Shown: positions 867 through 60,288 of the stretch, one piece after another
How positions within the stretch are numbered: the stretch's first letter is position 1
Layout of the letters: every line of letters starts with the position of its first letter
Source: an archaeon
Lineage (GTDB): Archaea > Micrarchaeota > Micrarchaeia > Anstonellales > Anstonellaceae
DNA: 64,000 nt
Reading direction: 5' to 3'
Assembly (NCBI GenBank): GCA_020056635.1
Contig: JAGVHI010000003.1
Location: forward strand, 28,638-92,637
The notes under the pieces: generated by a model
Databases searched by the model: none
Told to the model about the DNA's origin: nothing
What the model saw: the letters and a program-made list of their open reading frames with translations, nothing else
Position numbers and translations under genes: made by a program

Positions 867-1051
867 TGCCATAGTAGCTCAACCTGGGAGAGCAATCGGC
901 TGAAGACCGATGTGTTGCTGGTTCAAGCCCCTTTTTCTTTCTTGAGAAGAAAGAAAAAGGCCCTTGGGTTCAAAAAGAAAGAAAACGAGAGCAAAAACTC
1001 TCTGCTTCGAAATAAGGAATCCGATGGCTGCCAAAAAATCCGGCCTATGGC
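867..1051 (+). tRNA. tRNA-Phe (anticodon GAA) interrupted by an approximately 111-nt intron in the T-loop
   Basis: Exon 1 (867-924) carries the acceptor gccatag, D-arm tagctcaacctgggagagc, anticodon stem atcgg/ccgat, loop ctgaaga (U33, GAA), variable gtgtt, T-stem gctgg and T-loop ttca. Exon 2 (1036-1051) supplies aat, T-stem ccggc (which pairs gctgg with one G.U), acceptor ctatggc (a perfect 7/7 complement of gccatag) and discriminator a. An oligo-T tract follows at 1052-1058. Confidence 0.7.
925..1035 (+). other. Putative long tRNA intron in the T-loop between nt 57 and 58, with a 14-bp perfect palindrome at 929-959
   Basis: Removing it reconstitutes the canonical T-loop ttcaaat. It contains the hairpin cctttttctttctt-gag-aagaaagaaaaagg. 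It is homologous to the tRNA-Arg intron at 30221-30348. The exact junction is ambiguous by 1 nt because of the a-run. Confidence 0.5.
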
Positions 1052-1095: not shown

Positions 1096-1169
1096 GCGAC
1101 CGTAGTCTAGCCTGGTTAGGATCCGAGATTGCCAATCTCGAGAGCCGGGTTCAAATCCCGGCGGTCGCA
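1096..1169 (+). tRNA. tRNA-Gly (anticodon GCC), with no intron
   Basis: Acceptor gcgaccg/cggtcgc, anticodon stem cgaga/tctcg with loop ttgccaa, T-arm ccggg-ttcaaat-cccgg, discriminator a. No encoded CCA. Confidence 0.9.
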
Positions 1170-24487: not shown

Positions 24488-24583
24488 AGCGCCCTCTTTT
24501 TCTTTCTTTTTTCCCGTTCCCCATTTCAGCCCATCCCTTTCGGATGGGCGCTAGTTTAAATAAGAAGAGCGAGAGATTGCCAT

Positions 24584-30015: not shown

Positions 30016-30169
30016 CTGGAGCCTATTGCAGGGGCGCGGCTGGGACTAATCAAGGAATATAAAGCTATTATGGGATAAGAATGGCGCAACGCCCCTGGCC
30101 TATAACCGGGGCTAGTTAGGAATTGGAAAAATGAAAACGGGCCCGTAGCTCAGCTTGGATAGAGCGGCA

Positions 30170-30192
30170 AGAGGGGGCAGCCCCTCCCGCAT
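30170..30192 (+). other. Putative 23-nt non-canonical tRNA intron between nt 29 and 30 of tRNA-Arg
   Basis: Contains its own hairpin gagggg-gcag-cccctc. Its removal restores a 5-bp anticodon stem. Confidence 0.45.
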
Positions 30193-30220
30193 GCCTTCTA
30201 AGCTGTAGGTCATGGGTTCA

Positions 30221-30348
30221 GGCCCTTTTCTTTCCGTCCGGAAAGAAAAGCCCCTGGGGAAAAGAAAGAATTTTACTGCGGAAAATATCGCCTTTCGGCG
30301 TTTTTCCGCCCTGAAATATCTTCTCCCTATGGTTATAGGCCGCCCAAA
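30221..30348 (+). other. Putative 128-nt T-loop intron of tRNA-Arg, with an 11-bp perfect hairpin at 30225-30250
   Basis: Removal reconstitutes T-loop ttcaaat. Hairpin cttttctttcc-gtcc-ggaaagaaaag. Homologous to the tRNA-Phe intron at 925-1035. Confidence 0.5.
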
Positions 30349-30400
30349 AATCCCATCGGGCCCGTCCATTATAGAGGCTAGAAGCAGGGAGGTAGGGAAC

Positions 30401-51287: not shown

Positions 51288-51359
51288 GGGCTAGTGGCGC
51301 AACGGTAGCGCGCCTGCATGGCATGCAGGAGGCTGGGGGCTCGAATCCCCCCTAGTCCA
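51288..51359 (+). tRNA. tRNA-Ala (anticodon GGC)
   Basis: Acceptor gggctag/ctagtcc with the G3:U70 Ala identity pair. Anticodon stem cctgc/gcagg, loop atggcat. T-arm ggggg-ctcgaat-ccccc. Confidence 0.9.
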
Positions 51360-53277: not shown

Positions 53278-53391
53278 TGACATTGCCTTAATTTAGCACA
53301 CATATAATTCCGTTGTGTAAAAATCGACAAATTAAAATCGGAAAGAAAAGAGAAAGGAAAAAAGAAGAAAAAGAAAAAAGAAAGAAAATTC

Positions 53392-59373: not shown

Positions 59374-60288
59374 GTGATGGATTTTCTCAAAATGGGCGAC
59401 ATAAGCCCGAAAGATCTGCAGGACATACTCTGGGTTTCGCTTAGGATTAAGCAGGAGTTGAAAGGCGGAACGCATGAAGAGATGCTGAAGGGGAAAACGC
59501 TTCTGATGCTCTTTTCGAAAAATAGCACAAGGACGAGAGTTTCATTCGAGACCGGGATGACGCAGCTTGGGGGGCACGCAGTATTCCTGGATATGGAAAA
59601 ATCGCAGGGTTCCAGGGGCGAGAGTTTCTTTGATATGGGCGGGTCTGTGGGCGGGATGGCGGACTTGGTCATGGCAAGATTGCACTCGCACCAGGATATT
59701 GAGAAACTCGCAGAGGGTTCGGCTGCGCCTGTGATAAACGGGCTTACAGACTTGGAGCATCCATGCCAGGCGCTTTCGGACATGCTCACGCTCTGGGAGC
59801 TTGGGAAACTCAAAAAGGGGGGCAAGCTTGCGTTTGTCGGGGACTGCAGGAACAATGTGGCGAATTCCCTCATGCTTGCGTGCGCAATGTCCGGCTTGGA
59901 GGTTTCCATGGTAGGACCGGAGGGATATGCGCCAAAAAGCGAATATGTTGAGATGGCACAGGGGTTTGGGTGCAAGGTAGAGCATTGCGCTGATGTGGAA
60001 AAAGGGTTAGAGGGCGTGGATGCAGTTTATACTGACACCTGGGTTTCAATGGGTGATGAAATTGAAGCGAAGAAGAGGGTTGAAGTGTTATCTCCATACC
60101 AGGTGGATGAGAAGCTGATGTATTATGCAAAGCAGGATGCGGTATTCATGCACTGCCTTCCTGCGCATAGGGGGCAGGAGGTCACAAATGAGGTGATTGA
60201 TGGGAAGCAGAGCGTGGTATTCTTGCAGGCTGAGAACAGGATGCATGCGCAAAAAGGGCTTATGTGCTGGCTTCTCGGAAAGGCGTGA
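59374..60288 (+). CDS. argF: Ornithine carbamoyltransferase
   Basis: STRTR, HPCQ, SMG and FMHCLP motifs. Confidence 0.85.
   Translation: MMDFLKMGDISPKDLQDILWVSLRIKQELKGGTHEEMLKGKTLLMLFSKNSTRTRVSFETGMTQLGGHAVFLDMEKSQGSRGESFFDMGGSVGGMADLVMARLHSHQDIEKLAEGSAAPVINGLTDLEHPCQALSDMLTLWELGKLKKGGKLAFVGDCRNNVANSLMLACAMSGLEVSMVGPEGYAPKSEYVEMAQGFGCKVEHCADVEKGLEGVDAVYTDTWVSMGDEIEAKKRVEVLSPYQVDEKLMYYAKQDAVFMHCLPAHRGQEVTNEVIDGKQSVVFLQAENRMHAQKGLMCWLLGKA

Follow-up and report, generated by a model that had tools for sequence, protein, structure and literature searches.

A tRNA-Phe(GAA) gene of a Micrarchaeota archaeon with a long T-loop intron and a predicted relaxed splicing motif

The 64-kb stretch of contig JAGVHI010000003.1 analyzed here (hereafter the window) contains, at positions 868–1052 of the forward strand, what we consider with a probability of roughly 0.85 to be a functional tRNA-Phe(GAA) gene whose T-loop intron is removed by the archaeal splicing endonuclease pathway. 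An earlier, sequence-only reading of this DNA had proposed a tRNA-Phe(GAA) split by an insert of about 111 nucleotides (nt) in the T-loop. That proposal was upheld by our analyses: the joined exons are called as tRNA-Phe, the exons of a tRNA-Phe in a relative, which has no T-loop insert, are identical to them, a splicing motif lies at the junction, and an orthologous intron is kept in another relative. The host is, as judged from its proteins, a Micrarchaeota (DPANN) archaeon. Among the matches listed, the best genome and metagenome matches of the Lon-like protein encoded next to the tRNA were Micrarchaeota/Micrarchaeia bins (56–64% identity), and the best matches of DP1, the small subunit of DNA polymerase D, likewise came from Micrarchaeota.

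The gene extends from G1 at 868 to the discriminator A73 at 1052, each one base higher than first reported (867–1051), and CCA is not encoded at its 3' end. Exon 1 (868–924, + strand; nucleotides 1–56) comprises the 5' strand of the acceptor stem, the D-arm, the anticodon arm, the variable loop, the 5' strand of the T-stem and U54 U55 C56, while exon 2 (1036–1052, + strand; nucleotides 57–73) supplies the T-loop residues AAAU, the 3' strands of the T-stem and acceptor stem, and A73. The 5' part (868–924/925) thus reads GCCAUAG UA GCUC AACCUGGGA GAGC A AUCGG CUGAAGA CCGAU GUGUU GCUGG UUC(A), and the 3' part (A)AAU CCGGC CUAUGGC A. Every structural element previously listed for this tRNA is present in the sequence: the acceptor stem is paired at 7/7 positions (GCCATAG, 868–874; CTATGGC, 1045–1051), the D-arm is TAGCTCAACCTGGGAGAGC, the anticodon loop CTGAAGA (900–906) presents the anticodon GAA at 902–904, and the T-stem of GCTGG (917–921) and CCGGC (1040–1044) includes one G-U pair.

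ARAGORN identified the joined exons as tRNA-Phe(GAA), and their minimum free energy (MFE) fold is exactly the cloverleaf. The unspliced gene, in contrast, was called neither by ARAGORN nor by Rfam at its gathering threshold, as had been predicted for intron-naive annotation; in the whole window these tools reported only tRNA-Gly(GCC) at 1096–1169 and tRNA-Ala(GGC) at 51288–51359. At relaxed thresholds, the Rfam tRNA model matched 868–938 with 25.4 bits (gathering score, 29), as expected of a tRNA left uninterrupted over its 5' three quarters, and ARAGORN run at low stringency with introns allowed returned only noise. A strict scan for gapped cloverleaves (gap placed before the 3' strand of the T-stem; both strands of the 64 kb) recovered the tRNA-Phe and the two intact tRNAs and nothing else. 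Together with the ARAGORN call on the joined exons, this result rules out a chance assembly of tRNA-like segments.

Comparison with loci from relatives (labeled L004–L168) indicates that the exons belong to one gene. In L082, a metagenomic locus whose Lon-like protein is 60% identical to that of the window, a tRNA-Phe and the lon-like gene are likewise divergently arranged. The exons of this tRNA-Phe match the joined exons of the window without a difference, T-loop UUCAAAU included; the gene has no T-loop insert, and its sole intron (26 nt) occupies the canonical position 37/38. The closest relative found was L161 (Lon-like protein 80% identical), which, like L166, derives from Logan run SRR22387954 and was found via protein search. 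L161 has the gene order of the window (lon-like gene, divergent tRNA-Phe, then tRNA-Gly(GCC)), and its tRNA-Phe has two introns, one adjacent to the anticodon (37/38) and one of 128 nt that interrupts the T-loop where the window intron does. In the acceptor stem, U5-A68 of the window corresponds to C5-G68 in L161. A compensatory difference that reaches across the intron in this way indicates selection on the assembled tRNA and would not be predicted for a pseudogene.

The order tRNA-Phe then tRNA-Gly(GCC) is conserved in relatives, and in L013 and L067 (Ca. Fermentimicrarchaeum) an intact, very similar tRNA-Phe is directly followed by tRNA-Gly(GCC). The distribution of intron states across these relatives, as read from their sequences, shows fast turnover in both tRNA-Phe and tRNA-Arg(UCU), with no intron, introns at 37/38, 59/60 or 56/57, and combinations of these. 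For tRNA-Phe, there is no intron in L013 and L067, one at 37/38 only in L082, L004 and L005, introns at 37/38 and 59/60 in L084 and at 37/38 and 56/57 in L161, and one at 56/57 only in the window. For tRNA-Arg(UCU), the states are no intron (L168), 59/60 (L167), and 29/30 plus 56/57 (the window and L166). Further T-loop introns occur among related loci in L084, L163, L165 and L167, and in a tRNA-Val of L161. This last gene, which encodes tRNA-Val(GAC) and lies beyond the 3' end of the lon-like gene (L161 5471–5605, − strand), has a 64-nt T-loop insert to which no junction motif could be fitted in any simple register.

The archaeal splicing endonuclease targets a bulge-helix-bulge (BHB) structure, in which a 4-bp helix (H) lies between two 3-nt bulges, and the enzyme cuts each strand after the second bulge nucleotide (PMC3239211, PMC3488258, PMC6379350). 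At the tRNA-Phe junction (all elements on the + strand), H would be formed by U51 G52 G53 U54 (919–922) and GCCA at the end of the intron (1030–1033), with 4/4 pairs (UGGU:GCCA). H is followed by the 5' bulge U55 C56 / A (923–925), in which standard motif geometry predicts a cut at 924|925, and by an intron helix (h') of AGCC (926–929) and GGCU (1026–1029), again with 4/4 pairs. On the opposite side, the 3' splice-site triplet A A / A (1034–1036) gives a predicted cut at 1035|1036. These cuts would release an intron of 111 nt (925–1035) from between tRNA positions 56 and 57. Owing to a run of A residues, the junctions 924|1036, 925|1037 and 926|1038 all yield the same mature sequence, but only the cuts at 924|925 and 1035|1036 are consistent with H and h' of 4 bp each and a bulge of 3 nt. 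The T-loop had been described as rebuilt from TTCA and AAT; the mature sequence is indeed the same, whereas the splicing motif divides it as TTC and AAAT, at 56/57.

Several features of this motif recur in three homologous introns described below. H has 4/4 pairs in all three, and h' has 4/4 pairs, 4/4 pairs with a 1-nt bulge, and 3/4 pairs. The intron base facing exon nucleotide 51 covaries with it, being A opposite U51 in both tRNA-Phe genes and C opposite G51 in both tRNA-Arg genes, and the 3' end of the intron is identical in register across all four copies (H, then AA|AAAU). The exon-side helix (h) has 0/4 pairs in tRNA-Phe and 1/4 in tRNA-Arg and thus does not form the strict hBHBh' type; with no exon-side helix after the 3' site, the motif falls in the relaxed HBh' class. 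The unconstrained MFE fold of the tRNA-Arg precursor contains the HBh' exactly. For the tRNA-Phe precursor, a cloverleaf with HBh' lies 5.3 kcal/mol above the MFE, and that MFE fold is without even the anticodon stem.

The sequence-only reading had also referred to a tRNA-Arg with the same T-loop intron, and we located this gene at 30139–30364 (+ strand). It is a tRNA-Arg(UCU) with two introns: 23 nt at position 29/30 in the anticodon stem (30170–30192, + strand) and 128 nt at T-loop position 56/57 (30220–30347, + strand), the latter a paralogue of the tRNA-Phe intron. ARAGORN called tRNA-Arg(TCT) once both introns had been removed; the unspliced gene was missed by ARAGORN and Rfam, and gapped-cloverleaf scans found it only when they no longer demanded an intact anticodon arm. 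Its 56/57 motif consists of H (GGGU:GCCC), the bulge UC|A, h' (GGCC:GGCC) and the 3' site AA|A. An HBh' motif is present at the 29/30 intron as well; its H is GCGG:CCGC, and its h', GAGG:CCUC in the motif scan, can be extended by eye to GAGGGG:CCCCUC. The gene lies upstream of the genes for UPF0147, DP1 and DP2 (DP1 and DP2 being the subunits of DNA polymerase D), and an orthologous tRNA-Arg (L166 320–537) has the same layout, upstream of UPF0147-DP1-DP2. In L166, DP1 and DP2 are separated by a 309-nt spacer (2372–2680) with direct repeats (GGATTTCCAAAAAATGGATGGAAAAA...), where the spacing in the window is 2 nt.

The four 56/57 introns (111–128 nt; tRNA-Phe and tRNA-Arg of the window, tRNA-Phe of L161, and tRNA-Arg of L166) are homologous. 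Their alignments had z-scores of 8–46 against mononucleotide shuffles, and the pair within the window retained z = 5.7 against dinucleotide-preserving shuffles. The window tRNA-Arg intron matches the L161 tRNA-Phe intron at 101/125 positions but its own orthologue, the L166 tRNA-Arg intron, less closely (89/112, with more gaps); the window tRNA-Phe intron has a shorter and different 3' half. Similarities that cut across gene orthology in this way point to conversion or transfer between the T-loops of tRNA-Phe and tRNA-Arg. When the window and every locus retrieved were searched with the intron by BLAST and nhmmer, only the window tRNA-Arg and L161 tRNA-Phe introns emerged as convincing copies; the L166 tRNA-Arg intron was added by eye and pairwise alignment, and a match in L084, weak by search, was supported on inspection. 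Weak matches in L082 and L152 were rejected as coding or low-complexity sequence, and the purine/pyrimidine tracts at 24496–24511 and 53340–53390 as ordinary intergenic tracts.

The core that the introns share begins with a pyrimidine run, a short loop and purines complementary to that run (R1), and continues with a spacer rich in G and C and another run of purines (R2). In the tRNA-Phe intron of the window (+ strand), the first three elements form a predicted 14-bp hairpin (930–960; pyrimidine run Y1 930–943, loop GAG, R1 947–960), which is kept with compensatory changes in the homologous introns, and R2 (AAAAAGAAAGAAAA, 972–985) is the mirror image of R1. The core is present in six copies, namely the four 56/57 introns (930–985 and 30225–30270 in the window, and those of L161 and L166) and two introns of about 50 nt, one of them in the D-loop, in a tRNA located just upstream of tRNA-Phe in L084 (1538–1724, + strand). 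By this comparison, the hairpin-plus-mirror module extends to a more distantly related Micrarchaeota lineage, where it lies outside the T-loop. R2 mirrors R1 (reversed, not complemented) in 6/6 copies, even though the A/G order is not constant among them. R1 and reversed R2 had longest common substrings of 9–12 nt, always exceeding those of R1 and direct R2 (P = 0.004–0.034 each against shuffled R2). A fold-back purine-motif triplex, or H-DNA in the gene itself, would require mirror symmetry of this sort; for R2 of the long introns, however, the predicted pairing partner is a pyrimidine tract downstream.

It is conceivable, though we think it unlikely, that the 111–128-nt introns are copies of a mobile element specialized in the 56/57 site and rendered harmless by splicing, with a core (a pyrimidine-purine hairpin followed by an exact mirror purine run) that forms an intramolecular triple helix, or H-DNA at the level of the gene, serving either the spread of the element or a function of the excised intron, the RNA of which would probably be circular. 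In the whole window, at the gathering threshold and at E-values up to 10, no Rfam intron, small-RNA or riboswitch family overlapped the insert. Taking euryarchaeal tRNA-Trp introns as a model for C/D box RNAs (C box RUGAUGA, D box CUGA), we saw by eye that all four introns lack a C box; CUGA occurred only in the window tRNA-Arg intron and was not conserved in L161; no Rfam snoRNA match overlapped the introns.

We propose a splicing mechanism in which every step is deduced from sequence. Transcription would begin from an AT-rich box at 834–845 and proceed through a T7 run at 1053–1059. In the precursor, U51–U54 of the T-stem would pair with GCCA at the end of the intron, displacing the 3' strand of the T-stem and forming H; beyond it would come the bulge of 3 nt, U55 C56 | A, and the intron helix h' (AGCC:GGCU). 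The 3' cut (A A | A) would fall in the unpaired A-run directly 3' of H, the whole constituting a relaxed HBh' structure. A broad-specificity endonuclease, either an epsilon2 enzyme (as in Micrarchaeum ARMAN-2) or an (alpha-beta)2 enzyme, may cut both sites, after which a ligase would join C56 to A57 and the T-arm would refold as GCUGG-UUCAAAU-CCGGC. The intron itself is one copy of a family of long, highly structured introns resident at 56/57, copies of which have probably moved or been converted between tRNA-Phe and tRNA-Arg(UCU).

A number of observations weigh against this interpretation. BHB-like combinations of 4 + 4 bp are so frequent in these low-complexity sequences (20–50 per precursor) that the motif, taken by itself, counts for little; it gains weight because it coincides exactly with the tRNA-restoring junction and through the comparison and covariation among copies. 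The exon-side helix is absent, and formation of H opens three pairs of the T-stem. There is also a competing helix, in which CUUGGG (963–968, + strand) pairs with 922–927 (U54 U55 C56 A A G). This helix would extend the intron hairpin and bury the 5' cut site, and it is preferred both by the consensus fold from an alignment of three introns and by the MFE fold of the L166 tRNA-Arg precursor. The intronic T-runs (T5 at 932–936, T6 in L161, and T5–T6 across all four copies, inside predicted stems) present a further difficulty. Oligo-T runs can act as archaeal terminators, and those in the introns could stop RNA polymerase; synthesis of the full-length precursor may thus be inefficient, or may depend on RNA structure forming first. 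A splicing endonuclease homologue was not found in the 64-kb window, a weak test that used a single Methanocaldococcus query. Finally, the relaxed substrate cut by epsilon2 in vitro was of the hBH form, not the HBh' form seen here (PMC3239211, PMC3488258, PMC6379350).

The alternatives that share our view of the mature tRNA differ in how it would be produced. Splicing in another register (57/58 or 58/59), or through another recognition structure such as the competing helix, would leave the mature sequence unchanged, and both have something in their favor: the A-run makes three junction choices equivalent in product, and the competing helix is conserved with compensatory change (UUCAAG:CUUGGG in the window tRNA-Phe, UUCAGG:CCUGGG in the three homologues). 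However, registers 57/58, 58/59 and 59/60 give at most 2/4 pairs in H by hand and were absent from the motif scan. The splicing endonuclease does not cut within a continuous helix, which is where the competing helix would place the 5' site; we therefore read that helix as a competing fold of the precursor or a feature of the intron's own rather than as the recognition structure. MFE folding is divided (HBh' for the window tRNA-Arg, the extended hairpin for the L166 tRNA-Arg) and does not decide the matter, and we regard these variants as improbable. We consider it equally improbable that the gene is a split tRNA, with the 5' transcript ending at the intronic oligo-T, the 3' transcript starting from an internal promoter, and the two joined in trans through H and h'. 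All four introns do contain T5–T6 runs, a conserved GAAATA block precedes the 3' exon by 22–33 nt in the window tRNA-Phe, window tRNA-Arg and L161 tRNA-Phe introns (the L166 intron has GAATATAA in the equivalent region), and trans-spliced tRNAs with relaxed motifs exist in other archaea (PMC4033280). Even so, only 111–128 nt separate the two parts, which follow each other in the proper order on one strand, such that read-through would generate the same substrate. GAAATA moreover matches an archaeal TATA box poorly, nothing else backs an internal promoter, and the T-runs fall inside predicted stems.

A pseudogene would have a different consequence, namely that the 111-nt insertion (for example, a mobile-element remnant in the T-arm) broke this tRNA-Phe and a working copy lies elsewhere. 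Our search for a second tRNA-Phe covered the 64-kb window, and another gene could lie beyond it, a point that also counts against a functional gene at 868–1052. The 3' parts of tRNAs are known integration sites (PMC4033280), and T-arm-like strings occur inside the intron (GGGTTCAAA at 966–974, AATCCG at 1019–1024). Set against this are the intact exons, identical to those of the L082 tRNA-Phe, at the syntenic Phe-Gly(GCC) position; the retention of the interrupted gene in L161, with a compensatory acceptor change across the insert even though the neighboring protein is only 80% identical; the tailoring of the insert ends to the host tRNA, as seen in the covariation at nucleotide 51; and the same arrangement in the tRNA-Arg of both the window and the SRR22387954 relative. 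We consider a broken gene improbable. We give least credence to self-splicing of the group I or group II kind. Although group I introns can occur in tRNA genes of bacteria (PMC4033280), those known from tRNAs interrupt the anticodon loop, the present insert is at 111 nt much too short, its host is archaeal, and no Rfam intron family matched at an E-value of 10 or below. A T-loop intron removed by the endonuclease pathway is thus the interpretation that we favor.

The coding sequence of the divergent lon-like gene begins at 812 (− strand), leaving 55 nt to the tRNA, and an AT-rich, TATA-like box (ATTATTAAAATT, 834–845) lies between them, in agreement with the layout originally described. The center of the box is about 28 nt from both the 5' end of the tRNA-Phe (868) and the lon-like start (812), nearly midway. 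Its block AAGCATTAWTAAAATTGGCA is kept in the orthologous spacer of L161, where 41/53 positions of the whole spacer are identical, and the box may be a shared, bidirectional TATA element. Directly 3' of the tRNA-Phe, the T7 run (1053–1059, + strand) is likely an archaeal terminator. The intact tRNA-Gly(GCC) follows at 1096–1169 (+ strand; 60.8 bits with Rfam, and also called by ARAGORN), behind a TATA-type box of its own (TTTATAAATT, 1063–1072), just as had been noted.

The identity of the divergent neighbor, given as lon in the sequence-only reading, stands only in part. The gene (2–812, − strand, running off the window) encodes a 472-amino-acid Lon-like AAA+ ATPase with the N-terminus MAARDTSQ, labeled in different sources as Lon protease or as ATP-binding protein; its precomputed Pfam hits include no protease domain. 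The protein has a CxxC...CxxC insertion (RCRRCGAFSFADSAACPKCG) within the ATPase region. Directly downstream of the tRNA-Phe/tRNA-Gly pair, a gene at 1259–2413 (− strand) encodes a 384-amino-acid protein in which the RidA/L-PSP (endoribonuclease L-PSP) domain occurs three times in tandem. Elsewhere in the window, a weak match to sR52, an archaeal C/D box small RNA, at 59439–59508 (+ strand; 24.4 bits against a gathering score of 50) is probably due to chance.

These findings have a practical consequence for annotation. The tRNA-Phe and tRNA-Arg(UCU) genes are invisible to ARAGORN and to Rfam at the gathering threshold, and automatic annotation would wrongly report missing tRNAs in what is a reduced DPANN genome. 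The locus offers a well-supported example of a long T-loop intron at 56/57 with a relaxed HBh' motif. The four homologous introns also form a compact data set, with exon-matched covariation and non-orthologous similarity, on the spread of archaeal tRNA introns, a process described as unresolved in reviews (PMC4090602, PMC4033280).

The closest published parallel is Ca. Micrarchaeum ARMAN-2, in which 56% of tRNA genes are disrupted, with non-canonical introns and relaxed motifs (Fujishima et al. 2011, PMC3239211). One T-loop in that organism contains two introns, at 53/54 and 59/60, and its epsilon2 endonuclease cut a 13-nt T-loop intron of the hBH type in vitro (PMC3239211). Our locus resembles this system (PMC3239211; Hirata et al. 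2012, PMC3488258) in phylum, in the presence of a T-loop intron with a relaxed motif, in multi-intron genes (here tRNA-Arg), in genes missed by standard tRNA finders, and in a presumed broad-specificity endonuclease. The principle of relaxed-motif, non-canonical introns in Micrarchaeota tRNAs, served by a broad-specificity endonuclease, has accordingly been known since 2011. The ARMAN-2 T-loop introns differ in lying at 53/54 and 59/60, and the one tested was 13 nt long and of the hBH type, whereas those described here lie at 56/57, have an HBh' motif and measure 111–128 nt; they also have a conserved internal structure and a family relationship between tRNA-Phe and tRNA-Arg. What goes beyond the published ARMAN-2 cases is this length, the 56/57 site with HBh', and an intron family that does not follow orthology.

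Two other comparisons place the family in context. The 59/60 introns of L084 tRNA-Phe and L167 tRNA-Arg (both scored) and of L163 (by eye) occur in the same tRNA genes, the same loop and the same clade, but they use the T-stem as exon-side helix with H UUCA:UGAA (hBH), are 24–63 nt long, and are without the sequence module of the 56/57 family. In Thermoproteales, intron transposition among tRNA genes was described by Fujishima et al. (2010), as that work is cited in PMC4090602 and PMC3239211. On the account given by those citing papers, our data match the Thermoproteales pattern in the similarity of introns in different tRNAs, the fitting of the junction motif to the host tRNA and the fast turnover of presence and absence; they differ in concerning another phylum, in copies that share a single position (56/57) in two tRNAs, and in similarities that cross gene orthology.

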